A stretch of 15,207 nucleotides of DNA from Planctomycetota bacterium (lineage in GTDB: Bacteria; Planctomycetota; SZUA-567; H5-PLA8). Positions 1 to 15,207 of the stretch are shown piece by piece. Positions within the stretch are counted from its first letter, which is position 1. Every line of letters begins with the position of its first letter. The notes beneath the pieces are model-generated. The model had not been told where the DNA came from, searched no databases, and saw nothing but the letters and a program-made list of their open reading frames with translations. Where the stretch lies: assembly GCA_045863855.1 (NCBI GenBank), contig BTVV01000141.1, forward strand, positions 1 to 15,207. The letters run 5' to 3'. A program made the position numbers and the translations under genes.

Positions 1-280
1 TATATTGTGACGGAGCGTGTCGGCTGAAAGACCCTCTCGCAGGATGAGCAGTAGCCCGTGAGATGACCCCGAGCCAGCGCTTGTGCATGGTTGAGGGGGA
101 GGGAGGCACCCTGTGCCATCTGGTCTCTACTCTTACTTAATGGATTTCGCATGGTGCACAGATGGTCGAATGCTCGTAATTTTGTTCCTTAATCTTCTTT
201 ACAAGAAGATAGTCGACAGCCTCAAAAACGCCAAAAGAGCGTTTTGAGAACTTTCGACCTCTCAGCAGGGTATCCAAACC

Positions 281-748
281 ATGCGCATCCTCGCTCTGGA
301 CACAGGCACCATTACAGGCTGGGCGTATAAGGATGCCGACCACAGCATCAAATCGGGTACGTGGGATCTTACCCCCCACTCTGGCCAGCGACCCGGCGAA
401 CGGCTTCGGACCTTCTATCTGAATCTACGCGAATTCGACAAAAGCGTACCCATCGACTTAATCGTTTACGAGGAACAGCACGGACATTCCGGTACGGCCG
501 CAGCCCATCTGTACGGCGCCTTCATCGGGATCATCCAGCTCTATTCTGAACTCTTCCAAGTCCGCTACGCGCCCGTCGGCGTACAGATGCTGAAGAAGTT
601 CGCAACCGGGCGAGGTAACGCCTCCAAGGAGGAGATGATCGCCGCTGCGCAAAAACGATTCCACCCCCAGCACATCGAGGACGACAACCACGCCGACGCC
701 CTGCACCTTCTAGACTATGCGATAAAGAACTTCGTATCGCCGTCCTGA
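281..748 (+). CDS. Phage-type RuvC-like Holliday junction resolvase (RNase H fold)
   Basis: 155 aa. N-terminal ILALDTG..TGWA (first catalytic Asp), IVYEE (Glu), ATGRGNASKEEM and DDNHADAL (two C-terminal Asp) follow the RuvC motif order and size. Confidence 0.85.
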   Translation: MRILALDTGTITGWAYKDADHSIKSGTWDLTPHSGQRPGERLRTFYLNLREFDKSVPIDLIVYEEQHGHSGTAAAHLYGAFIGIIQLYSELFQVRYAPVGVQMLKKFATGRGNASKEEMIAAAQKRFHPQHIEDDNHADALHLLDYAIKNFVSPS

Positions 749-1647
749 ACCGCCCCCTTCCCCCCATTCTTCCCTTTCTTCCCGACGATCCCGTGCACCC
801 TCGCTCCGCGTTGCGAGCGCAACAACAAGTAATATTCCTTCAAATTTCGGGCATCCAGGAGCGCTGCGGGGTAGGGGTACGCAGTCAAGACCGCTTTCCA
901 ACACGCCATGACCGAGAACTTTTGAACCTTCACGATCCCCAGACCTTTCACGTTCGTTTCCACCACACCAACCGCTTCCGGCGGATACGGCTGGTCGTGC
1001 ACGTACGTGAGCACGTGGCCGGTCACGAGTTGACCGCCTTTTACCACGGCGAACGGTGCCGTGACCCGCAGCGCCGTCTTGAACGTGCTACCGCGGCGCA
1101 GCAGCACCTGCGCGAATCGAGTCAGCATAGCGCGATCCTCCCTGACCCGGGTCTGGTCCGAGTTGGCCACCTGGATTCGGACCACGGACAAATTCTTCTT
1201 GAACCCCAAGTCCTTCAGCAGAATCGACTTTAACAGCGAGCAGCGCCGCATGTAGCACCACGGACATCCAAAGGAATCGCAGCGCTTGCCCGTATAACCC
1301 TCCTCGAATCGATCGGCCGTCCAGCGACCGCCGGCGGGCTGGCAGTTGAGCATCATCCACGGACGCCAACTCGGGATCTCGTACTCTACGTTCAACGCCA
1401 TCACCTGCGCGCGCCACGCCCAGAGCAGTGCGTACAGGTCCGTTGCCATGCGCGACCGCCAATGCCGTCCTTTGCGGCTCCTCTTGTCCTGTCCCTTAAA
1501 TCGCCGCAGTGAATTCCGGTGAACGGTGCGCACCGTGGCCAGGTAATCGTCCCCAATGCCGGCCCCCACGCAGGCACGCAGCACCTGCCGCAGCAGCCCG
1601 TCCGGCCATATCTTGCGCAGTTCCCAACGTAACGGCTCCACGCACAC
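715..1647 (-). CDS. Hypothetical protein with C-x4-CPWC Zn-binding-like motif; possible divergent replication initiator
   Basis: 310 aa ORF with GTG start preceded by GAGGGG. Contains NCQP and RCDSFGCPWCY. Its 3' end overlaps the convergent RuvC-like gene by 34 nt. Function is inferred only. Confidence 0.6.
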   Translation of the reverse strand: MCVEPLRWELRKIWPDGLLRQVLRACVGAGIGDDYLATVRTVHRNSLRRFKGQDKRSRKGRHWRSRMATDLYALLWAWRAQVMALNVEYEIPSWRPWMMLNCQPAGGRWTADRFEEGYTGKRCDSFGCPWCYMRRCSLLKSILLKDLGFKKNLSVVRIQVANSDQTRVREDRAMLTRFAQVLLRRGSTFKTALRVTAPFAVVKGGQLVTGHVLTYVHDQPYPPEAVGVVETNVKGLGIVKVQKFSVMACWKAVLTAYPYPAALLDARNLKEYYLLLRSQRGARVHGIVGKKGKNGGKGAVQDGDTKFFIA

Positions 1648-1914
1648 GCCCCTCGCTCACGTGACTGCGATCATGCCGTGCCTGTCGGGCACGGCAAGCT
1701 CCACTCCTACTATAGGAAAATATCATGGATCCATTCGACCTTCGCGCTCTCGTGCTCGCCTTCGTCATCCTGCTCATTTGGATCGCGAATGGCCACGACG
1801 ACGACGCCCCCGACTGACCGCCGTACCGACCCGGCCCGCGCCCGCCCTGCACTACCGGGCGCGTGGGCGCTCGGGGTCGGTGGCGTGAGCGTGGCCCTGA
1901 CTCAGGAGCCGCAC

Positions 1915-2511
1915 ATGACCACCGCCGCCGATCTACGCGCATTGCCGTCCACCACACCGACCGCCGCCCAGTTCGAAGCGCTGCTGCCCGAACTGCAATC
2001 GCGGGCCGAGCGTATGTCCCGGCGCCTGCCCCGCCGCTACCAGCGGGACGCCGCCGACGACGCGCTGGGCGCGATGTACCTGAACCACGCCCAGGCCGCG
2101 CAACGTGGCAAACGCCTCAACGGGGAGGCGTTGGGCTGGGCTGCCGCCCAGCACCTGCGGCACCGCAGTCTGGTCACGCAGCGCGCGTATCCCAGCCGCA
2201 GGCGAGAAGATTTCGTATCGCTAGACTCGCCCGATCATCCCGCTCCGATCGCCGAGCGCCTGGCCCGCGCGATCACGTCCGACGAACGCGCGGATCCGGC
2301 GGTACGCGTGCAGCAGGCTGTAGACTGGAGAGCGTTCGCTCGGACGCAGCCCAAACGCATGCGCAGGGTCCTGCTGGACCTGTCCGTCGGCCATGCGAAA
2401 TCCGAGATCGCCGCGCGCCTGGGCATCTCGCGCGGACGACTCTCGCAACTGCTCACCCGGTTGGCCGCAGAGATCACTGCGTTCGGTCACGCCGAGACGC
2501 CCTGCACATGA
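1915..2511 (+). CDS. Sigma-70 region-4-like / HTH DNA-binding protein
   Basis: ATG at 1915 follows CAGGAG (1903-1908). C-terminal RMRRVLLDLSVGHAKSEIAARLGISRGRLSQL is an HTH, and the overall layout resembles a degenerate ECF sigma factor. 198 aa. Confidence 0.7.
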   Translation: MTTAADLRALPSTTPTAAQFEALLPELQSRAERMSRRLPRRYQRDAADDALGAMYLNHAQAAQRGKRLNGEALGWAAAQHLRHRSLVTQRAYPSRRREDFVSLDSPDHPAPIAERLARAITSDERADPAVRVQQAVDWRAFARTQPKRMRRVLLDLSVGHAKSEIAARLGISRGRLSQLLTRLAAEITAFGHAETPCT

Positions 2512-2675
2512 CTCCCGCCCAGGCCGCGCCGGCAAGCCCCGACGCGGCCTGGACTTAAAAGTTTCAGAAGCGGCGCTGCGGAAAGATTCGCCCTAGGATC
2601 ATTATCGAGCCCGGGAAAGGCTATTTTTTGGGGTTTGCGGGCAATATAATTCCGGCGAACGATGCGAGGTGCCCC

Positions 2676-3347
2676 ATGGACGAGGACGTGCCCGACGGTT
2701 ACGCGGAGTATCAGGATGAAGCGCGCGAGCACCGCCGTCCGCGCCGCCCGTGCCCGAGCGAAATGCCTACGCACGAATGGCTCCAGGCGCTCGCGCGCGG
2801 CGGTCAGGTCGGTGCGCTCGTGGACGCGCTCTCGAACCGCTGGACGGCCTGCATCGAGACCGCGAACGAGAAAAGGCGGCTGCTGAACGAGGTACTCAAG
2901 GCCAACGCCGACAAGGGGTTACCGGTTTTGATCGACGCCGTATTTCGCTGCATGATCGAGTACGACGCGAGATTGCTGCTGACGCGCCAGGTGTTGATCG
3001 CCGAGCAGATGGCGCAATACAATGGGAGGGAGGAGGTAACGCTCCGACCGTCGCCTGCGGTGATCGAGGAATTGGGCAAACTTTTGCGCATGGAAATGCG
3101 GCTGGTCGATTTGTGTGAGCGGTACGCGAGAATTTCCCACGTGTTGAAACTCGCCGGCTATCGCCCAATTCTAAACCCGAAAGTTGAGGCGCCTCCCACG
3201 CCGTACCGGCCACCCGCGTCAGAACCTCACGTTCAACACACCTCACAACCCCCGTCTCGTTGTGCCCCGGAGGTGCAAATTGCCTGTCATTCGAAACACG
3301 ATCGGCCCGCCAGACCCGTTTCAGTCCCTGTCTGGGCGCCAACTTAA
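2676..3347 (+). CDS. Hypothetical helical protein
   Basis: ATG 2676 follows GAGGTG, with a TATAAT at 2645-2650. Helical core and Pro-rich tail. 223 aa. Confidence 0.6.
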   Translation: MDEDVPDGYAEYQDEAREHRRPRRPCPSEMPTHEWLQALARGGQVGALVDALSNRWTACIETANEKRRLLNEVLKANADKGLPVLIDAVFRCMIEYDARLLLTRQVLIAEQMAQYNGREEVTLRPSPAVIEELGKLLRMEMRLVDLCERYARISHVLKLAGYRPILNPKVEAPPTPYRPPASEPHVQHTSQPPSRCAPEVQIACHSKHDRPARPVSVPVWAPT

Positions 3348-3801
3348 GGATCTCCTCGTTGAAATGCGTGCCGTTCTGGAGCAAAACGGGATCGTTCAGC
3401 GGCGTGGCGACCACTTTCGACTCAGGTACCGGGAACTTGAGCCCGAGTCTGGTTTCAGAGTTCATCGTTCGATATGGATCGGCCGAGATCCCTACGAGGC
3501 CGGCGCGGTCGCCAGCTTAATAAAGCGCTGGAAGGACGAGCGTAAAGCGCGCCTAGCATTGGCGGAGCAGCGTCGCGTGGCGGAGGCCAAGAACAAACGC
3601 CGCCAGGTGTTAGCGCGCGCCAAGGAGCACCTGTTGCTGGGCCTAATGAGCGGTGGAGGACGCGGCCATATCCGGAACGTGATCCGCGAGTTCGATGCTG
3701 CTGCTGCTAAAGGGACGTGGGCGGCCCTTGAATTCGTCAACGAACTCGCGCGCCGTACGCCGCCGCAAGCGGGCAGGAAAACGGAGATGTGCCTGTGGTA
3801 G
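3280..3801 (+). CDS. Hypothetical basic protein, possibly nucleic-acid binding
   Basis: In-frame TTG at 3280 follows GGAGG (3269-3273); alternative ATG at 3364. FRLRYRE...HRSIWIGR beta motif followed by an Arg/Lys-rich helix. Confidence 0.6.
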   Translation: MPVIRNTIGPPDPFQSLSGRQLKDLLVEMRAVLEQNGIVQRRGDHFRLRYRELEPESGFRVHRSIWIGRDPYEAGAVASLIKRWKDERKARLALAEQRRVAEAKNKRRQVLARAKEHLLLGLMSGGGRGHIRNVIREFDAAAAKGTWAALEFVNELARRTPPQAGRKTEMCLW

Positions 3802-3889
3802 GCGCCACCGGGGCACGCATGTGAGCCGCTCGGGCGGGATTTCCTAAATAGTTCGCGCCCGAATGAATAGCGCACGAGTCTCGTGATTT

Positions 3890-4000
3890 CGACCGTCCGT
3901 GAGCCTCGTTCTGGGGCTGAATTTTCGTAGCCTAACGGACACCCTAAAACGGATAGGGATTTGGGTCCGGCGATGACCGCGATTTAGCGTCCGCATTTTG
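3890..4000. promoter_or_regulatory. Candidate res site / promoter region of the serine resolvase
   Basis: GTCCG/CGGAC-like half-sites in both orientations at 3895, 3936, 3950, 3965 and 3989, directly upstream of the resolvase, where res sites usually lie. Confidence 0.35.
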
Positions 4001-4031
4001 CCGCTCAAACTACCCCCTAAAGGAGGCCGCC

Positions 4032-4664
4032 ATGGCCCGCCAAAAAGCGGCGCTACGCGTCGCGATTTACGCCCGCGTCAGCACCAGCGGGCAAGAGGTC
4101 GAAAATCAGCTTCACGATCTGCGGTTGTTCGTACGGCAGCGCGGCTGGGTCATCCAGGGGGAATACGTGGACGCGGGGGTATCGGGCACGAAAGAGTCGC
4201 GCCCTGCCCTCGACCGGTTGCTGGCTGTGGCGCGAAAGAACCAGGTGGATGTGTTGTTGGTTTGGCGACTTGATCGTCTGGGCCGGAGCGTCAAACACCT
4301 TGTCCTGTTGCTCGATGAGTTACGCAGGCTGGACGTGTCGTTTGTATCCCTCCACGAGAACCTGGATTCGAATTCACCCGTGGGTAAAGCGGTGCTGGGT
4401 ATTTTCGCGGTGCTGGCGGAGATGGAGCGGGAACTGATCGTACAGCGGGTGCAGGCGGGCTTGGCTCGCGCGCGTAGGGAGGGCAAGCGCCTGGGAAGGC
4501 CGCCGGTGGTGATCGATTGGACTCGGTTGCAGAAGTACGCGCGGAAGCACATGTCGGTGCGTGCTATGTCGAAGCATTTGGGAATCTCACGTGGGACCGT
4601 GGCCAGGGCGTTACGAACGTTGAAGCGCCGACGCGGCAGGCGCACTCGTGAACGGAAGCCATAG
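4032..4664 (+). CDS. Small serine recombinase (resolvase/invertase family) with C-terminal HTH
   Basis: YARVST catalytic Ser motif, RPALDRL, VWRLDRLGRS, AEMERELIVQRVQAGLARARREGKRLGRP and a C-terminal HTH. Strong RBS AAGGAGG at 4020-4026. Confidence 0.95.
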   Translation: MARQKAALRVAIYARVSTSGQEVENQLHDLRLFVRQRGWVIQGEYVDAGVSGTKESRPALDRLLAVARKNQVDVLLVWRLDRLGRSVKHLVLLLDELRRLDVSFVSLHENLDSNSPVGKAVLGIFAVLAEMERELIVQRVQAGLARARREGKRLGRPPVVIDWTRLQKYARKHMSVRAMSKHLGISRGTVARALRTLKRRRGRRTRERKP

Positions 4665-4673
4665 GGGGTGGCC

Positions 4674-4691
4674 AACAAACAGCTGTTTGTT
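4674..4691. repeat. Perfect 18-bp palindrome AACAAACAGCTGTTTGTT
   Basis: Read directly. Imperfect arms extend to ~4662-4700 (TAGGG..GTG / CACCCTA). Confidence 0.8.
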
Positions 4692-4739
4692 AGCACCCTA
4701 ACGGGTCGAGCGCCTTAATGAGCCCTGGTCGCACTATAT

Positions 4740-4764
4740 AAAGGTAGGGAAAGACCTGCCTTTT
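4740..4764 (+). terminator. Putative intrinsic terminator downstream of the resolvase
   Basis: AAAGGTAGG-GAAAGA-CCTGCCTTT hairpin (one G-U pair) ending in a short T run. Confidence 0.45.
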
Positions 4765-5298
4765 CAATGGGTGAGCCCGAAACTACAAGGGGTAGTGGGT
4801 CGGGGGCGAGAGGGACACGGGATGGCGGCTGCACGAGCAGATTCTATTGCTGTTGGAGAACTACCGGGCCGGTATGGGGAGATCCGCTAAGTGGATCGAG
4901 AACCTGATCGCTACCTGGGCGCTCATGAGTGAAAGCCGAAGGGGTGACATCCTCCCCTTATTATCTAGGAATTAGATTGATCCGCCGCATACCCGGACTA
5001 GCATCCAGCCTCCACCGTACCGGCGTGCCCATTAGGGCCGAGGGTCGGTGTGCGTGAGCGGCGAGGCATTCAGCCAAACTGCTCGTTCAGTACCTCAGAC
5101 TCTCCACTCCATAGTTGGCGCGGCACCGTTGCCGCCAGACAGAGCCCGTTTGCCTGTCTGGCGACGAATGCGATTCCGTGCCTCAGCACGTACTGCGATT
5201 CCGCGGTGGAGGCGTGGCGGCATGCCCGAACTGAGGTCTGACCGTAATTTTGACCGTCGTAAGCCGTTGCCGAAAAATGACTTGGGAGAATCCTGTCC

Positions 5299-5330
5299 CA
5301 GAACCCCGACAACGATCTATTTTTCGCCAC
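5299..5330. other. Candidate tyrosine-recombinase core site (CGACAA-8 bp-TTTTCG)
   Basis: Imperfect inverted arms 5307-5312 and 5321-5326 around the asymmetric 8-bp spacer CGATCTAT, ~35 bp before the ATPase gene start. Confidence 0.4.
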
Positions 5331-5359
5331 CGCCGTCTGCTACCACCTCCAGCGGATCC

Positions 5360-7813
5360 ATGGAGGCGGTCGCGGTGGATGTGCTGGCGGTGGTCGTCGA
5401 GCGTGCGCAGCAGGCCCTGAGTTCCAGCGCCGACGCGCAGGCGTTCCTGCACGCGCACGGGCTCAACGCTCCCGAAGTGCTGAGTTCGTATCGTGTCGGC
5501 TGGAGCGGACCCAACCTGCTCGACGGGATCGACCCCGCTGCGCTGAAGGCAGCGGGCCTTGTTTTCGGTAACCGGCTTTGTCCGGTGAAAGCTCCCGGCC
5601 TACTGCTGCCCACGTTCGATCCGCACGAACCCAATCAACCTGTGGGCCTCGTCAAACTCGCGCCGTACTTGGGACGGCATGCGTTTTCGACGACACCCCC
5701 GCACGGGCTGGCACTACCGTGCGAGCATGCGGCTGGCCGGACTGTCGTTGCCGATCACCCGATGTTGCTCCTGAAGCTGGCGCAGGAAGGTGTGCGCGGC
5801 GCTGTGCTGGTGTGTGGCGACGAACTGCTCGAAGCCCACGCGGACTGGCTGAAGGCGCGCGAGATCGTCGTGGCCTCGTACCGTAAGCCAGCGCTAAAGC
5901 GTATGCAGGACTTGCTGGGTCCGGATGTGCCGGCCGCGTGGTGCCATACGGAGTTCGTGCGCACGCCTACGGACTCGCTGGCGCTGCTGGGCATCGACAA
6001 GGCCAACCTGCCGGCCTCGAAGCTCGCTGGGCGTTCGCGTCCCAAGAAGCGCAAGGGCAACTCGTCAGTGGCCGTGCAGCAAGCCGAACGCGCCGATACG
6101 CCTGCGCCCGCTGCCGCGCAGACGGTGGCCGAGTGCGGGGATGCCCCGCCGCCCGCGCTTTCTCTTAGCTATCAGCCCGCCGAGGGTACGCCCGGCACGC
6201 AGGGCCACGCGGAGCATGCTCCCGCGCCCCCGCCTGCCGAGGCCGCCGCCCCCTTGGCCATCGAAGTCATTTCGCCGCTGGCCGCCGAATACCCCGAGAA
6301 GCCCGAGTTGGTAACCCACGATACCCGGATGCTACGGGCAGTCTTCAGGGCCGGCGACGCGACCTACGAAGTCGAGACTGCATTCGATGTGGGCAGCAAG
6401 CTGGAGGTGAGCGTCGAGCGGCAGAGCCAGAAGGCCCGGGATCGTTTCGACCTGGCCAAAGAGGCGCAACGCAAGCGCTTCGCCACCAGCGCCGCCCTGC
6501 GTACCGGCGTTCCCTGCGAAGTCGTCGAAGCCCATCTGATCGTGCTCCTGGACGCCGTGCGCGTGCTTCAAGCGGCGGTGCTCGACCCCACCAAGAAAGC
6601 TTCGACGCCTGCGGCCGAACGCATGTCCGATGCCGAGCGCGAGGATGCGCTGGCGCTGCTGCGCCGGCCTGACCTGCTCGACGCGGTTGCCGGTGAACTG
6701 GAAGCCCTGGGGTGGGTGGGCGAAGAGAGCCTCAAGCGCCTGCTTTTCCTGGTCACGCTCTCGCGCAAGCTCCCCGATCCGCTGCACGCGGCCCTGCGCT
6801 CGCCCAGCGGCGGCGGCAAGACCTTCGCCCTGGAGGCGCTGTGCGCCGCCACCCCGCCCGAAGACCTGATCCGATTATCGAACCTGACCCAGGCCGCGCT
6901 GATCCACCAAGGATACGGACTGCGCCACAAGCTCCTGTGCCTCTCCGAGTCGGACGTGCTGGAACGCGAAGTGATCGTCCAACTGCGCGTGCTGCTCAGC
7001 GAAGGTGTGTTGCGCCAAGCCGGTACGATGCGCGACGCCGCCACGGGTACGGTCGTCTCGGACTTCCGGGAAGCGAAAGGCCCGGTGGCGTTCCTGACCA
7101 GCACCACCCGCGACTTGGACCGCGAGGTCTTGGACCGTTGTTACGACCTGACCCCCGATGACTCCGAAGCGCAGACGCAGCGGATTATGGAAGCGCAGCG
7201 GTTGTCCAAGCGCGAAGCGGCCGGCTTAGCCCACCGGGCGCGGATCACGACGCGCCTGCGTAACCTCCAGCGCCTGATCGAACCCCTTCCGGTGGCGATC
7301 CCCTACGCGGACCGGATCGAGTTTCCGGCCGCGAACATCCGCCTGCGCCGCGAGCACCAGCGCTTCCTGCGCCTGATCGAGGCCAGCGCTTTGCTGCATC
7401 AGTACCAGCGCCTGCGGGAGCATGGCTGCATCCTGGCCGATAGCGCCGACTTCGAGATCGCGCTGCACTTGGCGGGGGATTCCATTGGCCGGGCGGTGGA
7501 CGAACTCTCGCGGCATGCGGCGGCCGTATGGGCGTTGGTCCGCGAGCAGCGCTTGGCCGCGTTCAGCCTGAACGAACTGCAGGCGCACTTGCCCGGCTGG
7601 ACCCGGCACCGGATTTACAGCGCCTTGGAAGAACTCAACCGCGTGGAGTTCGTCACGTCCGAGCGTGGCCGGGGCAAGGTCCGCACGTACCGCCCCGTGG
7701 CGCTGAGCGTGCGTGATCGGCTCGAAGCGGCGGTGCGGCTACGCACGATGGAGGAGTTGTCGGAGGCTCGCAAGCGTGACAACAACTTTATTCCTAGGGC
7801 CGCAACGGGTTAA
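5360..7813 (+). CDS. DnaG-primase-derived protein fused to a P-loop (AAA+/MCM-like) ATPase and probable C-terminal winged helix
   Basis: N-terminal AQAFLHAHGL...SYRVGWS resembles the DnaG core N-terminus. Pro/Ala linker, Walker A SPSGGGKT, Walker B-like LLCLSE, DREVLDR Arg-finger-like motif, and RREHQRFLRLIEASALL. Start placed at ATG 5360, where protein-like sequence begins (817 aa); the ORF is open from 5048. Confidence 0.8.
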   Translation: MEAVAVDVLAVVVERAQQALSSSADAQAFLHAHGLNAPEVLSSYRVGWSGPNLLDGIDPAALKAAGLVFGNRLCPVKAPGLLLPTFDPHEPNQPVGLVKLAPYLGRHAFSTTPPHGLALPCEHAAGRTVVADHPMLLLKLAQEGVRGAVLVCGDELLEAHADWLKAREIVVASYRKPALKRMQDLLGPDVPAAWCHTEFVRTPTDSLALLGIDKANLPASKLAGRSRPKKRKGNSSVAVQQAERADTPAPAAAQTVAECGDAPPPALSLSYQPAEGTPGTQGHAEHAPAPPPAEAAAPLAIEVISPLAAEYPEKPELVTHDTRMLRAVFRAGDATYEVETAFDVGSKLEVSVERQSQKARDRFDLAKEAQRKRFATSAALRTGVPCEVVEAHLIVLLDAVRVLQAAVLDPTKKASTPAAERMSDAEREDALALLRRPDLLDAVAGELEALGWVGEESLKRLLFLVTLSRKLPDPLHAALRSPSGGGKTFALEALCAATPPEDLIRLSNLTQAALIHQGYGLRHKLLCLSESDVLEREVIVQLRVLLSEGVLRQAGTMRDAATGTVVSDFREAKGPVAFLTSTTRDLDREVLDRCYDLTPDDSEAQTQRIMEAQRLSKREAAGLAHRARITTRLRNLQRLIEPLPVAIPYADRIEFPAANIRLRREHQRFLRLIEASALLHQYQRLREHGCILADSADFEIALHLAGDSIGRAVDELSRHAAAVWALVREQRLAAFSLNELQAHLPGWTRHRIYSALEELNRVEFVTSERGRGKVRTYRPVALSVRDRLEAAVRLRTMEELSEARKRDNNFIPRAATG

Positions 7814-7898
7814 GGGGGTGTTGTCGGAAACCCGGGGAGGTGACACCCCTCTTTTTTTGCTTGGAAGTTGGTTTTACGTGGATCGTAGTCGTAGGTGG
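7783..7898 (+). repeat. Composite direct repeat, copy 1
   Basis: 32-bp block 7783-7814 matches 7947-7978 at 24/32. Block 7834-7898 matches 8004-8067, beginning with an identical 24-mer GGGGAGGTGACACCCCTCTTTTTT. Confidence 0.85.
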
Positions 7899-7946
7899 TG
7901 CGGGTCCACCTTCGTGCAGTTGGCGAGGTTGGCGAGCGCGTCTCGC

Positions 7947-8067
7947 CAACTTTACGCCTGGCGTAGCAAAGGTTTAAGCCCGGTTGGTGAGTTGGCGTGG
8001 CGTGGGGAGGTGACACCCCTCTTTTTTGTCGAGAAGTATGTTTTCGCTGGAACGTAGCCGTAGGTGG
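7947..8067 (+). repeat. Composite direct repeat, copy 2
   Basis: See copy 1; offset 164-170 bp. Ends ~20 bp before the first recombinase ATG. Confidence 0.85.
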
Positions 8068-8086
8068 ACTCGGTGGGACGGATCGT

Positions 8087-9061
8087 ATGCACGTTATATT
8101 GGACCAGTACCTTAAAGCGCTAGAAGTCGCCGGCCGTGCTTCGACGGCGCGCAGCAACCGCCGTGTCTTGGACCGCTTCGACGCGTACCTGCGCGCCCAA
8201 GGGCTCGAAGACCCGTTGCAGGCCACCGAAGAGCGCTTACGCGCCTTCCAACGGTTCCTGGCCGAGGACTACCGCCGCCCCGATACGCGCCGAGCCCTGG
8301 CCAAGGCCACGCAGGCGACCTGGGTCAGTGTGGTCAAGGCTTTCTACTTGTGGGCGTACCGGCGCGGGATGCTGGGAGTTGATCCGGCCCGGCGCTTAAA
8401 GCCGCCGCGGATCGTGCGGCGCAAGGTCAAGGCCGATCCCCTCGACCAGCAGGAGACGATGGCGTTCCTCCAGACGCAGGCCCAGCGCGTGGCTACGCGT
8501 ACGCACGGCAGCCGGAGTTGGGCCGTCGAATGCCGGAACCTGGCGCTCTTGGCTCTTGCCTTCGCCACGGGGAGGCGGCGCGAATCGCTGCAGGATCTGC
8601 GCGTGGGCGACCTGGACTTCACCCGCAACGAAGTCCGCGTCGAATGGGAGAAGGGGCAAGCCGGCCGCGTGCTTCCCGTCGCCGCCTGGGCCATGCAACT
8701 GGTCCGGCCTTACCTGGAGCACGCTCGGCCTGTCTTGCTAGGCCATGGTCCTGACCCCGGCTGGATCTTCCTGGGTGCGCGCACCGAACGGATCTGCGGC
8801 GAGTACCTGGGCCGGCTGATCCAGGCCCTCCAGGCTCAGACCGTCGAAGCCCACCCCGACCTGGACGAGCTGGCCGCCAAGAAACTCTCCAGCCACTCCA
8901 CCCGCGTCACCTTTGCGACCGTGCTCTTCCGTAACGGAGCCGATATCCGCGGCATTAACGAACTGCTCCTGCATAGGCGCCTGTCCACTACGGCCAAGTA
9001 CACGCCGCTGCACGTGGACGACCTGCGCCGCGCATGCCGGGCTGCGCACCCGAGGGCTTAG
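8087..9061 (+). CDS. Tyrosine recombinase/integrase (XerC/D-like) 1
   Basis: SAM-like N-terminal domain; catalytic set TGRR (R), EKG (K), HSTR (HxxR), LLH (H), AKY (Y). ATG 8087, 324 aa. Confidence 0.92.
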   Translation: MHVILDQYLKALEVAGRASTARSNRRVLDRFDAYLRAQGLEDPLQATEERLRAFQRFLAEDYRRPDTRRALAKATQATWVSVVKAFYLWAYRRGMLGVDPARRLKPPRIVRRKVKADPLDQQETMAFLQTQAQRVATRTHGSRSWAVECRNLALLALAFATGRRRESLQDLRVGDLDFTRNEVRVEWEKGQAGRVLPVAAWAMQLVRPYLEHARPVLLGHGPDPGWIFLGARTERICGEYLGRLIQALQAQTVEAHPDLDELAAKKLSSHSTRVTFATVLFRNGADIRGINELLLHRRLSTTAKYTPLHVDDLRRACRAAHPRA

Positions 9062-9062
9062 C

Positions 9063-9977
9063 GTGGAAGACCAGATCGAAGCGTACCTGGGGCAGCGTGC
9101 GGCCGAAGGGTTATCGCCTAAGACCCAGGCCCATTACCGGCGCGTGCTCACAGGATTGGCGGCGTCCTTTCGGTCACGCGGGGTAGCCAGCTGGGCGGAT
9201 GCCGTCCCCGATACGGTGGACGCGTACCTGGAAGAGTTGTCCAAGCGCTACTCGTTCGGGAGCCGGGCCTCGTTCACGATCACCGCCCGCGCCTTCCTGC
9301 GTTGGCTGGCCGAGAGCGGAGCGATGCCCGTTGACCCGGCCCGCCACGTGACCGTACCGCGGCCCGAGAAGGATGACCTGCCGCTGCCTGAGCCGCCCTT
9401 GAGCGAGGCCGACGTGGCCGAGCTTCTGAACGCGATGCCCAAGCGTAACGCCGTGGACCTGCGCGATATCGCCCTAGTCGAGCTGCTTTATTCCGGGGGC
9501 CTGCGGATCAGCGAAGCGTTGGCGCTGGACTTGCGCGATACCGACTTCCAAAACCGCGTCCTGCATGTCCGTAGCGGCAAGGGCGCCAAGCCCCGCGAGT
9601 TGCCGCTGCTCCAGGGGCTCTTTATCGCCTTGCGTACTTACTTGGCATTGCGCCGCTCGCTCTTGAAAGGCCCTGACCACGGCGCGCTCTTGCTGACCAA
9701 CCGGGGGCAGCGCCTGACGATCGGCGCCTCGGATCGGATGTTCGACAAGCTCAACCGCCGCCGGGGGCCGAAGGCGCCGCACTTGCACGCGCACCGGCTG
9801 CGCCATTCGATCGCGGTGCACATGCTGCGCGGGGGCGCGGACATCCGCTACATCCAGGCGTTCTTGGGGCACGACTCTCTGGAGAGCACCAAGATCTACT
9901 TGAGGCTGGTGCCGGCGGACTTACGGAAGGTTTATGACGCGGCGATGCCGGTGCTGGCGGGTGCTCATGGCGAATGA
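9063..9977 (+). CDS. Tyrosine recombinase/integrase (XerC/D-like) 2
   Basis: GTG 1 nt after the upstream stop. GLRISE, GKGAK, HRLRHS, LGHDS and KIY motifs are all canonical. 304 aa. Confidence 0.95.
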   Translation: MEDQIEAYLGQRAAEGLSPKTQAHYRRVLTGLAASFRSRGVASWADAVPDTVDAYLEELSKRYSFGSRASFTITARAFLRWLAESGAMPVDPARHVTVPRPEKDDLPLPEPPLSEADVAELLNAMPKRNAVDLRDIALVELLYSGGLRISEALALDLRDTDFQNRVLHVRSGKGAKPRELPLLQGLFIALRTYLALRRSLLKGPDHGALLLTNRGQRLTIGASDRMFDKLNRRRGPKAPHLHAHRLRHSIAVHMLRGGADIRYIQAFLGHDSLESTKIYLRLVPADLRKVYDAAMPVLAGAHGE

Positions 9978-10090
9978 GTCTTTAACTCCTTTACCTGTCT
10001 TACTTTGTGCCCTCTTATTAATTACTCATAGAATGTATAGATCGTTCATAAAAGAACTATTTTTACATTTGTTGCTTAATTAGCCGATCC
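9978..10090. promoter_or_regulatory. AT-rich intergenic region with imperfect palindrome; probable promoter/operator of the XRE-ImmA operon
   Basis: Sharp AT-rich shift. AATGTA-TAGATC...GAACTA-TTTT-TACATT dyad at 10032-10069. Confidence 0.4.
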
Positions 10091-10227
10091 TGGGTATCTT
10101 GATGTTGGGGGTGAATCCCTTCAAAGGAGGTGTTACCGCGAAGCAATGGATTGCCGGTGTTAGCACGAGCGACGGGCCAGGAGCAAGGTCCGGGGGGCTA
10201 ATGGCTGGCTTAGAGGAGGAGCAGGGG

Positions 10228-11388
10228 ATGGGGGAACGGGCGGAAGTGATCGCGCCGAACATTAGGCGGTTAAGGCAACGCAGCGGGAAAAGCCAGGCCG
10301 AAATTGCAAGCAGGTGCGGTATGAGCCTTTCTGCGTTTCGCCGCATCGAGGCCGGGGAGGTTGTGCCTCGGGTGGATACGTTGCAGGCATTGGCCGAGGG
10401 GTTTGAGGTGCAGCTACAGGATTTGCTGGCGCCAGCGTTTCAGTTGGAGCGTGTGCGCTTCCGGGCCAAGAAGCAGCTTAAGTGCCGCGAGCAGGTGCTC
10501 ACGGACATGTCGCGTTGGTTGCAGGACTACTGTGGACTCGAAGATTTGCTGGATGAGACCCAAGAGCGGGACAGTTTGAAGAAGATTCCGGTGCCCGAGA
10601 GGCCCGATCTGCTTAAGCGTGCAGAGGACGCAGCGGAGCATGCCCGAAAGGCATTCGGACTGCGCGAAGGCGATCCAATCCGGGACATCTGTGGCCTGCT
10701 AGAAGATAAAGGCGTGAAGGTCTACTCCATGCAGGTGCACTCGGATGATTTCTTTGGCCTTTCGGTGGCTGAAAAGGATACCGGCCCCGCTATCGCCGTG
10801 AACACGTGGGATCGCATTTCGGTGGAACGCTGGATTTTTAGCGCTGCCCACGAGTTGGGGCATCTCATCCTGCATCTTTCCGCCTTTAAATCGGAAGAGA
10901 CCGAAGAGAACGAGAACGAGGAACTTCAGGCGAACCATTTCGCCTCCTGCTTCCTGATGCCGAGACGGGCATTTGAGAAGGAATGGAGTGAAACCTACGG
11001 CCTTCCATTTATTGAACGCGTTTACAAGGTGAAGCATATCTTTCGCGTCAGCTACAAGACCGTCCTGTATCGCCTGGACCAGATGGACTCCAGAGGCACA
11101 AACTATTGGCCGAAATTCTACGCCGCGTATCAGAGAATGAACGGAACTAAGCTCGCAAAGCACGCTGAGCCTGCGTCCGTTCCTGAAAGCGCATACATGA
11201 AGAGCATGCCCGCATCCCGGCGCCCTGAAGAGCCCGAGAATATTCAACATGGATTTGTTCAGGATCGTCTTTACCGGCTAGTTCGAAAAGCCATCGAGGA
11301 CGGGAAGATTACGAGGTCGAGGGCAGCGGAAATTCTGAGAAAAACGCTCGATGAATTCCACGACCTGCAAGCCGCGTGGGTGGAGTGA
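10228..11388 (+). CDS. XRE-family HTH fused to ImmA/IrrE-family (DUF955) Zn metallopeptidase
   Basis: NIRRLRQRSGKSQAEIASRCGMSLSAFRRIEAG is an HTH_3 pattern. ERWIFSAAHELGH (HExxH) and ELQANHFASCFLMP. ATG 10228 follows GAGGAGGAG; alternative ATG at 10201. Confidence 0.93.
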   Translation: MGERAEVIAPNIRRLRQRSGKSQAEIASRCGMSLSAFRRIEAGEVVPRVDTLQALAEGFEVQLQDLLAPAFQLERVRFRAKKQLKCREQVLTDMSRWLQDYCGLEDLLDETQERDSLKKIPVPERPDLLKRAEDAAEHARKAFGLREGDPIRDICGLLEDKGVKVYSMQVHSDDFFGLSVAEKDTGPAIAVNTWDRISVERWIFSAAHELGHLILHLSAFKSEETEENENEELQANHFASCFLMPRRAFEKEWSETYGLPFIERVYKVKHIFRVSYKTVLYRLDQMDSRGTNYWPKFYAAYQRMNGTKLAKHAEPASVPESAYMKSMPASRRPEEPENIQHGFVQDRLYRLVRKAIEDGKITRSRAAEILRKTLDEFHDLQAAWVE

Positions 11389-11394
11389 TTATCC

Positions 11395-11913
11395 GTGTCA
11401 GCGCGCCGAGTGAAGCGGGTCATTGATGCGAGCGCGCTGATTCAGCTTCTGGAGGTGTGTGAGAGTGTACTGGCACTTTCATCAGGTCAGGTGGTCGTGA
11501 TCGCCGTGCCAGTACCCGTTTTGTACGAAAAGCGAAGTTTAACTGAAGAGCGATGCAGGGCCTTGGGGTTGGAAATCGTTCGCGGCGAGACCGAGCAGTT
11601 GTTGGAAGCTGCGGCAAGGAAGGGGAAAGGCGGGCTTTCTTTTCAGGACTGGAGTTGCGTCATCATTGCCCAAGACGCGGGTTGGGGGATCATTTCCGAG
11701 GATAAGCCGTTGATCAAGGTGGCGCGCAAGGAAGGTCTCAAGGTAACCGGTTGTTTCGACCTATTGGCGGAGCTTTACGAGAAAAGCCTCCTACGGATTG
11801 ATGATGCGCAAACGTACGCCAGAAACCTTCAGGCAAACAATCCGGGGTACATACCTTACGACGATGTAGTGGCGCTGATTGAAAGGCTCAGGAGGACCAA
11901 ACCGAAAGGTTAG
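11395..11913 (+). CDS. PIN-domain protein (putative RNase toxin)
   Basis: VIDASALI, LSFQDWSCVIIA and IISEDKPL give the PIN acidic residues. Starts 6 nt after the ImmA-like gene. Confidence 0.8.
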   Translation: MSARRVKRVIDASALIQLLEVCESVLALSSGQVVVIAVPVPVLYEKRSLTEERCRALGLEIVRGETEQLLEAAARKGKGGLSFQDWSCVIIAQDAGWGIISEDKPLIKVARKEGLKVTGCFDLLAELYEKSLLRIDDAQTYARNLQANNPGYIPYDDVVALIERLRRTKPKG

Positions 11914-11919
11914 CCGGAG

Positions 11920-11951
11920 AAAAAAGCACCCCCGGCCTGAACCGAGGGTGC
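11920..11951 (-). terminator. Intrinsic terminator with U-tract on the minus strand
   Basis: GCACCCCCGG-CCTGAA-CCGAGGGTGC hairpin preceded by A6 on the + strand. Confidence 0.65.
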
Positions 11952-12023
11952 GATACTACTAACCCAAAGGGAACCGGACCTCCCTTAGGGCGGGGTTGAA
12001 CACCCCTACTTGAGGCGTGAACA
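11920..12023 (-). ncRNA. Candidate ~105 nt small RNA
   Basis: Minus-strand TTGAAT(12057-12052)-16 bp-GATACT(12035-12030) promoter-like pair, two internal hairpins and the terminator above. No ORF. Confidence 0.4.
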
Positions 12024-12180
12024 ACTTCAAGTATCGGCTGTTTCCCCCCGAATTCAAGTGGTCCTTTTAGCCTGTCGCCTGAGGCGGGAAGGGAGGGGTG
12101 TTGCCTCGCGACGGGCCGCTTGCTTAACGCACGTGTGTGCGATGGGTTTCCTAAGACCAGTTGATGAAAGGGCTTACGTC

Positions 12181-12444
12181 ATGAGATTTGTTAATTTTGA
12201 ATTTAATGCAAGCCGGGGTGACGTAGTTGAGGTAACCCTGCCGGGAAGGGCTGCGAATGTACTGTTGCTGGATCCGTTTAACTTCCGGGATTTCAGATCA
12301 CGTAGAAGCTACCGGTATCGCGGTGGGTTTTTTAGAGGATCTCCGGTTCGACTTGCCGTACCGCAATGTGGTCATTGGTACGTGGTTGTCACGGATCCAC
12401 ATGGCGGAATCGTGAGCGCATCCGCTCGGCTGCTCTCGGCGTAG
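12181..12444 (+). CDS. DUF1883-like small beta-rich protein
   Basis: 87 aa. GDVVEVTL..AANVLLLD..NF..FR..R.YRY.GG....SPVRL.VP..GHWYVVV matches my recollection of the DUF1883 pattern. Confidence 0.75.
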   Translation: MRFVNFEFNASRGDVVEVTLPGRAANVLLLDPFNFRDFRSRRSYRYRGGFFRGSPVRLAVPQCGHWYVVVTDPHGGIVSASARLLSA

Positions 12445-12452
12445 TCGATGGC

Positions 12453-12495
12453 GCCTGAAGACTGCACGACACGGGTTGCCGGGCAGTCTTCAGGC
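12453..12495. repeat. Perfect 13-bp inverted repeat (stem-loop, possible terminator)
   Basis: GCCTGAAGACTGC (12453-12465) / GCAGTCTTCAGGC (12483-12495), 8 nt after the upstream stop. Confidence 0.75.
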
Positions 12496-12556
12496 TACTT
12501 AAGGCAGGTACGATGGCTTTAGAAGTCTGAAGCCGTTCCATTGAGCGAGGACTACC

Positions 12557-13414
12557 ATGCATACCGAATCGGAACTGTTTTTTGAGCGCTACCTATCCCA
12601 GAACGGCTACACAGCGTATGCGTTCGAGCCGTCGATTGCCGGACAAGAGTCGAAGCCAGACTACCGGATCGAATGGCAGGGCGTATCCACCTACCACGAG
12701 ATCAAGGAGCTATGCGAGAAAGGGTCGCGTGATTCCAAGGGCAGGTGGTTTAATCCGTACAAGAGCCTGCGCAAACTGATTGGCAAGGCTCGGTCCAAAT
12801 TCGGCGCGCTTGCAAGTAGTCCTTGCACTTTGGTGGTGATGAACGTAGGCGATTGGACGGCTCTCCTCGATCCGCGAACGATCTTTGGTGCCATGCTCGG
12901 TGACCTCGGATTCAAAATGCGAATCAATACGGTTACGGGGGCTGTGGAGGAGTCGTCGTTTACTAATGCCTTCCTGGGTGGCGGCAAGATGATCGCTCCC
13001 CACACCGGCGATTTCCAGAACCAGACGATTAGCGCCATTGTAGTGCTAAAGGCATCCAGGTTTTTAGAACCTGATTTCGGCCGTGATTTGCGCCGGCTGT
13101 TGTTGGATGCGAAATGGAAGAAGGGGCGGCACCTTTCCGAACGGGAAGACATTGAGTTGCGATGGAACTTTTACGCTCGCTACCCGCGAGGCCGGTTCAC
13201 GGTTCCGCGTGTCGTTGTGGTCGAGAATCCGGTTGCTCGAAAGCCTCTTCCTGCAACCATGTTTCGCGGCCCCTACGACGAGCGGTGGACGGTAGGTGAA
13301 AATGGAATGGCGTGTGAATACGAAGGTGCGCTCTTGAAAGAGCAGAGGCAGATCAAGCGCGATATGCCGATCGTAACGCGTGACGAACCCGAGAACGACG
13401 AATTGAGCGCCTGA
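12557..13414 (+). CDS. Putative PD-(D/E)XK restriction-endonuclease-fold protein
   Basis: RBS GAGGA. N-terminal SELFFERYL helix, then KPDYRI...YHEIKEL (E / PD / ExK). 285 aa. Confidence 0.7.
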   Translation: MHTESELFFERYLSQNGYTAYAFEPSIAGQESKPDYRIEWQGVSTYHEIKELCEKGSRDSKGRWFNPYKSLRKLIGKARSKFGALASSPCTLVVMNVGDWTALLDPRTIFGAMLGDLGFKMRINTVTGAVEESSFTNAFLGGGKMIAPHTGDFQNQTISAIVVLKASRFLEPDFGRDLRRLLLDAKWKKGRHLSEREDIELRWNFYARYPRGRFTVPRVVVVENPVARKPLPATMFRGPYDERWTVGENGMACEYEGALLKEQRQIKRDMPIVTRDEPENDELSA

Positions 13415-13438
13415 TTCAATGGCCGGCTGGAGTTAACC

Positions 13439-14017
13439 GTGCAAGTAAACCCGGAAGCGTTTTGGATCGAATACCGGGAAGCCTTGCGTGCACGCTGCCG
13501 GACTGTGCGCACGCTTGACGATCCGCTGCGGAAGCAGACAGCAGCATGGACCGAGGCCGTCATCAAGGTTGCGCGTGGTGTGATGGAATCGGCCTTCAGC
13601 TTGGAAGTGCGCAGTGAATACTTGAATCTCGATTTAGTCGGTGTGGAGCCCAAGGGGGCGGGTGAGTACGACTTCGACATCAGGATCGCCTTCGAGCACG
13701 AGAACAAGCCAGGCACCTACATGGACGAGTTGTTCAAACTATCGCATGTGGTCGCTGACCTGCGCGTGCTGGCGACCTATTACACCGGCTCCCGAGAAAA
13801 GGCGTTAATGGCTCTGCAAAGCCAGCTTGCAAGCATGGAGGATCGCATACGCCGGCAACCCGATAGCGAATGGCTGTTCATCTGGGGGCCGGTAGATTCT
13901 CTAAAGCACAAGATCCCTTATGCCGCGTTTGCCTTCGACACCCATGGCACCCTGATCGAGTTGGATACGTCCTCGCCCTTCATGCCCTCGGCCGAGTTCA
14001 AACTCATTAGAGCATAG
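13439..14017 (+). CDS. Putative PD-(D/E)XK-like nuclease-fold protein
   Basis: GTG after GGAG. SEYLNLDLVG...IRIAFEHEN...DELFKL...ADLRVLATY fits a D...ExE variant of the fold. 192 aa. Confidence 0.6.
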   Translation: MQVNPEAFWIEYREALRARCRTVRTLDDPLRKQTAAWTEAVIKVARGVMESAFSLEVRSEYLNLDLVGVEPKGAGEYDFDIRIAFEHENKPGTYMDELFKLSHVVADLRVLATYYTGSREKALMALQSQLASMEDRIRRQPDSEWLFIWGPVDSLKHKIPYAAFAFDTHGTLIELDTSSPFMPSAEFKLIRA

Positions 14018-14117
14018 GACGCCCTAGCCCAGCTCTGCCTGAATCCGTCGCTTACCTACCTGAAACGAGCCTCTTCTTCCTCCGTGACGCCCCTGTAACC
14101 GGCGCTATGCTGTTCCC

Positions 14118-14396
14118 ATGGTCATGCTGGCCCCTTCCACCGCCACGTCTTGCGCCGTAGGGGATCGGCGAAACTTCGGAGGTCTTGGCACTGGTTTTAC
14201 CTTGAACGTAGAAGTCCCCGCGGCCAAGGAAGCCTTCAACGGTAACACTGGAGAGGTCTTGTTGAGGGCAACGGCCAGTGACCATAAAGGCGGTGTGAAT
14301 ATCGAAGCTCAGGCCTTACCCGAAATGCGCAACACAAAGATCTTCTCCCTAACGCTGGGAGTGGTACATAAACAGGGGGGGGGGGCAGGTCAGTGA
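14118..14396 (+). CDS. Small hypothetical protein or gene fragment
   Basis: 92 aa, beta-rich looking, no clear RBS. Stop overlaps the next start (GTGA) and the ORF contains a G11 tract. Confidence 0.3.
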   Translation: MVMLAPSTATSCAVGDRRNFGGLGTGFTLNVEVPAAKEAFNGNTGEVLLRATASDHKGGVNIEAQALPEMRNTKIFSLTLGVVHKQGGGAGQ

Positions 14397-14839
14397 GGCG
14401 TGCGATTAGGGTCGCGTATCGGTTGTCTTGGGGCGTGCTGGTCCAGGCGCTCGCGGCGCGCGGGGAGGATGCGGTGCCGGAGAAAGCCGGCGAGGTGACG
14501 GTGGAGTTCGCGGACGAACGGGTCAAGCGGGCGCTCTCGCCGGAGGCGGCGAAGGGACTCAAGCGCTTGATGCGGGAGGCCTATTGGGAAACCCCTCGAA
14601 AGTGGGAAGCGAAGCCGAGCGGTTGGTTCCGCGTTGGGGAACAAACCTACTGCTGGATGGAGGATCTTGTTTGGTCTACCGACTTAAACGCGGGATTCCG
14701 CTCGAACCTAACATTGGCGCAGGATCAGGATCCGGCTGAGGAGGGCGAAAAGCGAGTTGCGGCGTGGAATTGGCGGCTGGAAGCGTTTGAGGGGAAGGGC
14801 GCTGAAGCTGAGGCGGCGGCGCGGCAAGCTCAACGCTGA
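14393..14839 (+). CDS. Hypothetical protein, possibly exported
   Basis: 148 aa. Basic N-terminus, moderately hydrophobic stretch and ALA/ARG cleavage-like site. Confidence 0.45.
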   Translation: MRRAIRVAYRLSWGVLVQALAARGEDAVPEKAGEVTVEFADERVKRALSPEAAKGLKRLMREAYWETPRKWEAKPSGWFRVGEQTYCWMEDLVWSTDLNAGFRSNLTLAQDQDPAEEGEKRVAAWNWRLEAFEGKGAEAEAAARQAQR

Positions 14840-15152
14840 AACCCAAGACGGGTGCGGGTGCGAACTCCGCAAGAAGTCTCTAAGCCGCGCCGCAAGCTGT
14901 CCTATAAGGAGGTGGTAAAGCGTTCGCGGTATGTGGAGAGAACGTGAAAGGAAAAAATTTCGTCGAGCACCGTGCGAAAATCTGCCGGATGCAACCAACC
15001 CAATACAACCTTAGTTCCCCCAAGGTATTACACATTTCGTAAACACAAATGAAACACACTGCTCTCTTTTAGCTTGTCATATATATGCGGTGGTATATAC
15101 AGTCTTGCATTAGCTTTGACTTTCCTGCTCTTCACATCCGAAAGGTATGCTT

Positions 15153-15207
15153 ATGCGTATCCCGCTCTTGTTTTTCTGTGTTGTTGCATTCCTTCTGACA
15201 CCGCTGG
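15153..15207 (+). CDS. 5' end of a probable secreted/membrane protein (runs off the window)
   Basis: AAGG RBS, then MRIPLLFFCVVAFLLTPL..., which is signal-peptide-like. Follows an AT-rich intergenic region. Alternative ATG at 15147. Confidence 0.5.
   Translation, partial: MRIPLLFFCVVAFLLTPL

Follow-up and report, generated by a model that had tools for sequence, protein, structure and literature searches.

A degenerate primase-helicase and twin tyrosine recombinases of a Planctomycetota bacterium as the probable core of an integrative element of polymorphic toxin loci

What does a gene set made up of an apparently inactive primase fused to an ATPase and of two adjacent tyrosine recombinases mobilize, and where does the mobile unit end? 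The question is raised by a stretch of 15,207 nucleotides from a Planctomycetota bacterium (GenBank assembly GCA_045863855.1, contig BTVV01000141.1, positions 1 to 15,207 of the forward strand), which was analysed as a whole and is referred to here as the window. It encodes, all on the plus strand, a primase-helicase (Prim-Hel, 5360..7813) and the tyrosine recombinases Xer1 (8087..9061) and Xer2 (9063..9977). An earlier note, made from the letters of the window alone, had proposed a minimal element at 5240..10070 that excises or inverts. Here we present the three genes as the core of what is rather probably an integrative element of polymorphic toxin loci, which probably replicates and would use site-specific recombination to displace toxin tips; the link to such toxin genes was missing from the earlier note. 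The source genome (G000, 6.9 Mb) is distinguished below from the relative genomes G066, G313, G091 and G008 and from the relative loci L009 and L103 (the latter on contig C1 of G066); other C-numbers are contigs of the source genome unless G066 is named.

As far as comparisons of sequenced genomes go, the non-coding right arm of the element is shown to end at a fixed base of a toxin core, directly before an orphan tip, and an empty allele bears that tip on a full-length gene. In related strains of Escherichia coli, 10 loci contain 17 arms, all of which (17/17) meet the core at a single base in the Asp codon of the DPIGL motif; seven different tips follow that base. Strain Ec-U14-2 has no element at rhsE, and its full-length rhs gene bears the tip that is found as the last arm-joined orphan in strain SCU-113; the filled allele exceeds the empty one by an insert of 16,714 bp that has a 15-bp direct repeat at its ends, with flanks about 99% identical on both sides, and the switch from core to arm before the identical tip maps to 15 bp. 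An integrative element that makes its target gene whole again by supplying a new 3' end has just this pattern. In Paraburkholderia both arms (2/2) meet a haemagglutinin core at a single base; the junctions lie 323 and 893 bp from xerC and lead into different tips. Within the window's own genus the arm-joined rhs pieces all start at one Gly codon (4/4); five copies besides these run on as core and one has another junction. In G066 a full rhs gene is followed by one further gene, then by 60 bp of arm end and finally by an orphan core, with 44 identical bp after the junction and 0 before it. Tips of rhs genes also follow xer2 in G313 (two elements and a remnant) and in G091. As a separate observation, two orphan tips at E. 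coli rhsE (loci L069 and L071) start at the same Asp codon behind a short motif other than the arm and resemble non-autonomous cassettes.

The window copy is, with near certainty, a member of this family, which is very large; that the element is minimal or a one-off is not supported. Relatives of Prim-Hel form 6,254 clusters at the 50% level, and matches occur in 55 of the 401 genomes of the phylum and in 37 plasmid records, with none among 50,697 phage records and none in both metagenome scans and one viral scan. A single-recombinase relative is present in 54 of 5,426 complete E. coli genomes. The family is already annotated, as 'DNA primase/CHC2/toprim + xerC', and the annotated order runs from an exported toxin and its immunity gene through a helix-turn-helix (HTH) gene, often with SymE, to Prim-Hel, xer, a toxin-antitoxin pair and an orphan tip, often in tandem; this conserved synteny across homologs supports the integrative element that the earlier note had suspected. 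A large exported toxin-type gene lies directly upstream in six of the nine non-E. coli plasmid records examined, the others being two small circles with tip/immunity genes and one unannotated record. Two small circular records (8.8 and 11.3 kb) carry the module; the one from Shigella equals one tandem unit and could be a genuine circle or an artefact of assembly. The survey covered 53 Prim-Hel loci after removal of two near-duplicates, 44 of them with a recombinase directly downstream.

The reading frame of Prim-Hel is open from 5048 to the stop at 7813, and ATG 5360, the position at which close homologs begin, is the likely start. Profile, structure and alignment divide the protein into a degenerate DnaG core, a disordered linker, a beta domain, an MCM-like AAA+ ATPase and a winged helix. 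The single sequence gave nothing useful against PDB; a profile built from 76 of 150 listed homologs matched DnaG structures (E 1.6e-24). Canonical members align with a CHC2 finger and acidic TOPRIM motifs. In the window protein the finger is absent, D132 replaces the catalytic Glu of DnaG and S-Y-R replaces DxD (placed by eye); a derived branch has two degenerate primase cores, of which the window protein keeps just the first, the second core of longer homologs being absent. Since the alignment contrasts canonical CHC2/TOPRIM members with the window protein, it is well supported that the primase part is dead, with zinc finger and catalytic acids lost, as the earlier note had read it. The predicted fold is confident (mean pLDDT 86.8), and every Foldseek match listed for the ATPase region was an MCM protein (best E 7.5e-12); neither Pfam nor NCBIfam recognized the ATPase. 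Walker A (GGGKT), R593 and R663 are retained and the Walker B Asp is replaced by Ser; ATPase activity is likely. Neighbours of Prim-Hel in the ESM Atlas have the Toprim and MTBMA_p00010 P-loop families, MTBMA_p00010 presumably being a protein of plasmid pME2001. Four homologs (P0027, P0032, P0040 and P0108) have lost Walker A in addition to having dead primase cores. In a mosaic of the L008 type (window 5473-6027 compared with C179 and C200), the primase-like N-terminus is exchanged between paralogs, the ATPase being common to them.

The gene xer2 starts one base past the stop of xer1. Both products match Phage_integrase plus SAM_1 and have the full R-K-H-R-H-Y set, so that gap and catalytic residues are as first described; their identity to each other is 28%. 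Under a strict rule, 60 of 65 family recombinases have intact catalytic sets. In a quick version of the recombinase tree, Xer1 and Xer2 form separate, co-inherited clades in this branch (SH-aLRT 100 and 99), the single-recombinase relatives form a clade apart from the window recombinases, and the host XerC/XerD pair, encoded on C158 and C65, has a branch of its own. Cut-offs were not reached for the XerC/XerD equivalogs (best 197.9 against 335 bits), for the NCBIfam PRK01287 'XerC' subfamily (129 and 164 against 371 bits) or for the integron integrase IntI (88 against 265 bits), and an E. coli dif pattern had no match anywhere in G000, in a search that had no positive control. Among the 44 elements 25 have two or more recombinases and 19 have one (at least two of these being cut by contig ends). 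Because 19 of 44 have one recombinase, the obligate two-subunit recombinase proposed earlier is not a family rule; the co-inheritance stands, and we infer an Xer1/Xer2 heteromer for this branch.

Prim-Hel and xer1 are joined by a duplicated junction block (7755..8067, plus strand) with short direct and inverted, origin-like repeats and a G4..C4-T6 motif. The internal composite repeat reported for the window is present, with 24 nt identical at 7834 and 8004 and 65 nt at 82%. A fuzzy search of both strands of the 6.9-Mb genome with the 17-mer at 7834 returned only 7834 and 8004 on the plus strand and 4941..4957 on the minus strand; the last, an inverted relative of the 17-bp motif before xer1, bears out the inverted motif seen on the left and is a candidate binding site or hairpin. 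Positions 7894-7975 match the 3' end of Prim-Hel in the C200 copy and are read as a recombination scar, the remnant of a second allele's Prim-Hel 3' end, so that the composite repeat would be partly scar. Elements of E. coli and of G008 contain comparable duplicated blocks as well. Element-specific short repeats cluster at the junction block beyond chance (11 of the 44 elements reach 5% of local background or less), a modest clustering that fits a replication origin. With a matrix from six arm ends, the C179 copy of the G4..C4-T6 motif ranked in the top 6 of 13.9 million positions; the motif also scores terminator-like and may be a binding site or, alternatively, a terminator. Outside the genus the arm-end motif was no commoner than the control, the promoter and terminator scan stayed at chance level, and the tRNA and Rfam searches gave no match.

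The G+C content is 0.66-0.67 in the three genes, whose linkage is as the earlier note stated, 0.325 at 9978-10100 and 0.549 in the cargo. The sharp compositional edge on the right is real as a drop after 9977 and marks the start of the cargo, not the end of the element, which lies 4 kb further right than had been thought. The cargo (4.1 kb, toxin-antitoxin-like) lies between xer2 and the right arm and so belongs to the element, as had been supposed. It comprises, on the plus strand, a gene for an XRE-HTH/IrrE-type peptidase (RmrA-like) and a weak PIN-like gene (E 0.069) at 10228..11913, which are a probable toxin-antitoxin pair, followed at 12010..14017 by a gene for a DUF1883 protein and two open reading frames (ORFs; 285 and 192 aa). 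The proximal 100 bp of the non-coding right arm follow at 14055..14157 (plus strand; 86-90% identical to C200:6074 and C206:3158); the distal part of about 140 bp, which joins toxin genes in other copies, is missing. Next, at 14158..14839 (plus strand), comes an orphaned C-terminal part of an exported PKD-domain protein, which matches the end of a 1761-aa PKD protein of G066 (52% over 52 aa), and then a 148-aa ORF in a tip/immunity-like position. Because the distal arm is gone, the present mobility of the window copy is doubtful, and its ability to excise at its own right end may have been lost. Upstream, a gene for a PinR-like serine resolvase (4032..4664, plus strand; Pfam Resolvase, E 2.6e-47) is a recurrent left neighbour and possibly part of the unit; of 46 Prim-Hel loci, 9 have a same-strand resolvase no more than 5 kb upstream. 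SymE and HTH had no match among the window proteins scanned, a scan outside which the short ORFs of the 4664-5360 gap fell. A repeat at 14336-14394 is also found at the starts of C122 and C227 (contig ends), with variant forms in the assembled runs X1 and X3.

The source genome holds three elements that are mosaics of one another, all of which carry part of the arm. An alignment of homologous flanks, which the earlier note had called for, yielded a common right arm and the fixed junctions, but no common left end was found among these three copies. Where xer2 ends, locus L009, which has 92.8% identity to window 1829-9960, begins to diverge. Each of the four close copies has its own cargo (the XRE-peptidase/PIN-like genes, a Panacea pair, DUF3800 with ORF6N, and the C179 genes, which have no family assignment), followed by the common arm, about 240 bp long in C200, C206 and L103. 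Next to the C200 element lie an rhs core and tip; the window and L009 run instead into PKD-domain exported proteins, whose toxin nature is putative. The PKD exported proteins of L103, L009 (10391-14023) and C271 have a common N-terminus, variable C-termini and a distinct downstream gene each, and are possibly a polymorphic system of Planctomycetota. After the DUF3800 gene of L009, a short structured-looking spacer (9276-9350) is possibly a type III-like antitoxin RNA.

Taken together, the element would live in Rhs, contact-dependent inhibition (CDI)/haemagglutinin and similar exported-protein loci, as a unit of a new tip with its immunity gene, a regulator or resolvase, Prim-Hel, one or two Xer-like recombinases, toxin-antitoxin cargo and the right arm. 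The recombinase or recombinases would join the arm end (attP) to the fixed core base (attB), so that the element's tip lands on the host toxin and the old tip is pushed downstream. The MCM-like helicase would replicate the excised circle from the repeats at the 3' end of its own gene, in the window copy without a primase of its own, and the cargo would stabilize or retain the unit. RecA-type recombination between tandem copies would alter copy number and make mosaics. The window copy lies in a two-recombinase branch.

Several observations count against tip displacement by the recombinases. A 6.8-kb unit distinguishes strains R12 and FDAARGOS_1373 (one unit against two), and its crossover falls within the arm, at 705-771 bp, apparently by homology and away from the junction. 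Several orphans have long core homology (83-1460 bp), junction positions vary between lineages, four tip searches gave only one independent empty allele, and the circular junctions for which the earlier note had suggested looking were absent from four contig sets. A lower contig depth over the cargo in assembled run X1 (about 6 against 10-13) carries no weight as evidence. A narrow motif, which also missed known cases, placed Rhs within 6 kb of only 8 of the 44 elements and left many members in the phylum without Rhs; toxin linkage is not universal. The window copy has a truncated arm and no rhs tip, and neither an empty allele nor a left end was found for it; the origin signal is modest, the window standing at 0.05 of local background. 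The crossover inside the arm and the lineage-specific junctions, together with the mosaic copies in G000, the tandem near-identical units and the Shigella circle that equals one of them, would suit an unlikely, yet not negligible, alternative. In it toxin loci carry a selfish replicating unit as a passenger, each lineage owes its arm-core junction to a single ancestral accident, RecA exchanges tips and amplifies copies, and the Xer proteins serve only for multimer resolution or for some other kind of movement of the unit. Against it stand the seven tips after the same E. coli base and a core-to-arm switch that maps to just 15 bp, a length too short for efficient RecA.

Two further explanations were weighed. 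The first idea was a cassette site inside xer2, at which an integron-like array would capture cassettes, each consisting of the final 80 bp of xer2, cargo and the initial 30 bp of the arm; it was demoted because the arm cut points vary (three different points in three loci), and is now held to be improbable. In its favour is L009, where, after xer2 and a first cargo gene, the start of the arm runs straight into a repeated 3' end of xer2 (its last 80 bp; 9386-9501), with a second cargo gene and the arm behind it, a joint also present in assembled run X7 at chromosome depth (29.7 against 27.1), and the different cargo of the four close copies would agree with it. However, X7 looks like the same strain, no second case was seen among the other loci, the joint is imprecise, and deletion in a tandem array explains it. 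That the three genes alone (about 5240-10070) excise or invert between their own flanking motifs, with an obligate Xer1/Xer2 pair, seems scarcely credible. That L009 and C200 cease to match where xer2 ends, that inverted 17-mers flank Prim-Hel and that the Xer clades are co-inherited speak for it, but homology resumes at the arm past the variable cargo, the three G000 copies share no left end, single-recombinase relatives are common, and the 17-mer motif resembles a terminator. Nothing points to inversion, no strand-switch joints being present in the four contig sets.

As an element that probably displaces toxin tips, the unit has partial likenesses among known systems. Paired tyrosine recombinases are found in host XerC/XerD, in Tn554 and in RIT elements, a RIT element being three adjacent tyrosine recombinases. 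The window differs from XerC/XerD by scores under the cut-offs and by the separate host pair in the genome, and from Tn554 and RIT by having two recombinases, not three, with a helicase gene as the third. P4-like satellites, phage-inducible chromosomal islands (PICI) and gene-restoring integrative elements combine an integrase with a primase-helicase and integrate into a gene, replacing its 3' end; in the present family, unlike these, the helicase is MCM-like and not of the P4 type, no phage record matches, and the replacement end is a different toxin tip.

Kawano et al. (2007, PMC1891008) named Prim-Hel, which joins a primase of the DnaG type to an MCM-like AAA+ helicase and lies on mobile islands beside SymE, RHS and haemagglutinin genes; the words recombinase and integrase are absent from the main text of that paper, and its consulted portion shows no ends or mechanism. 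The window protein shares the C-terminal MCM-like AAA+ part and, by way of the family profile, the DnaG match, degenerate in its own case. The window holds the PKD-type exported-protein piece as a candidate counterpart of an RHS or haemagglutinin neighbour, and the C200 paralog has the rhs core and tip. The window copy differs in having no SymE or Cro-type HTH match, a dead single primase core and two recombinases. According to Jackson et al. (2009, PMC2935791), an incoming circle pushes the resident Rhs tip downstream and leaves strings of orphans, episomal tip circles are predicted, and no integrase is known with Rhs; the displacement proposed here is alike, and the recombinase of the Prim-Hel element may well be the integrase which that model lacks. 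For Vibrio arrays the consulted portion of Kirchberger (2017, PMC5361080) reports no evidence for an integrase; primase, recombinase and integrase are among the terms absent from Poole (2011). XerC/D genes lie beside polyimmunity loci (Zhang 2012). Those and rAID loci resemble the window element in linking an XerC/D-like tyrosine recombinase to interbacterial conflict genes and differ in their arrays of orphan immunity genes, no primase-helicase or tip swap being seen in the sections at hand (PMC12247911, PMC3482391); rAID arrays consist of short, co-oriented immunity genes of low GC with recurring intergenic motifs, and the window cargo, at the G+C content given above, has no intergenic repeat family. 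Neither the ends nor the mechanism of the element were found described in the literature searched, which mostly excludes subscription journals, where a description may exist; the family appears to be widespread and only passingly noted before, and its tip-swapping role to be undescribed.

Two neighbouring regions of the window are recorded here in their own right. Positions 281-3801 hold a RuvC-like gene, a 310-aa ORF, a sigma-like HTH gene and two further genes; this separate multi-copy block, also present in C117, C176, C167 and C208 and in G066, often with a recombinase at its end, occurs without the three-gene set too and looks like a second island family. Positions 14844-15207 together with C206 1-3042 give the start of an exported protein of about 1360 aa without a Pfam match. 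In G066 this protein goes on into the C206 sequence, behind which lie two genes, one of them with HEAT repeats, and in G000 an arm and an rhs orphan follow this region on C206.

How Rhs and CDI loci gain new tips and orphan arrays is an open question, for which the family supplies a candidate recombinase, a candidate replicase and a 15-bp site. If the proposal is true, it would account for the many additional genes annotated 'xerC' and 'DNA primase' next to toxin genes, and would bring with it a bacterial MCM-like replicon and an integrase with a short site. A broader proposal, put forward more tentatively, is that the family could be a cross-phylum, self-replicating integrative class whose attachment site is the conserved pre-toxin motif of Rhs/CDI genes, its members acting as site-specific tip exchangers that mobilize short non-autonomous tip-immunity cassettes, with two recombinases and a primase-dead MCM-like helicase in the Planctomycetota branch. 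Polymorphic toxins would then gain an integron-like diversification machine.

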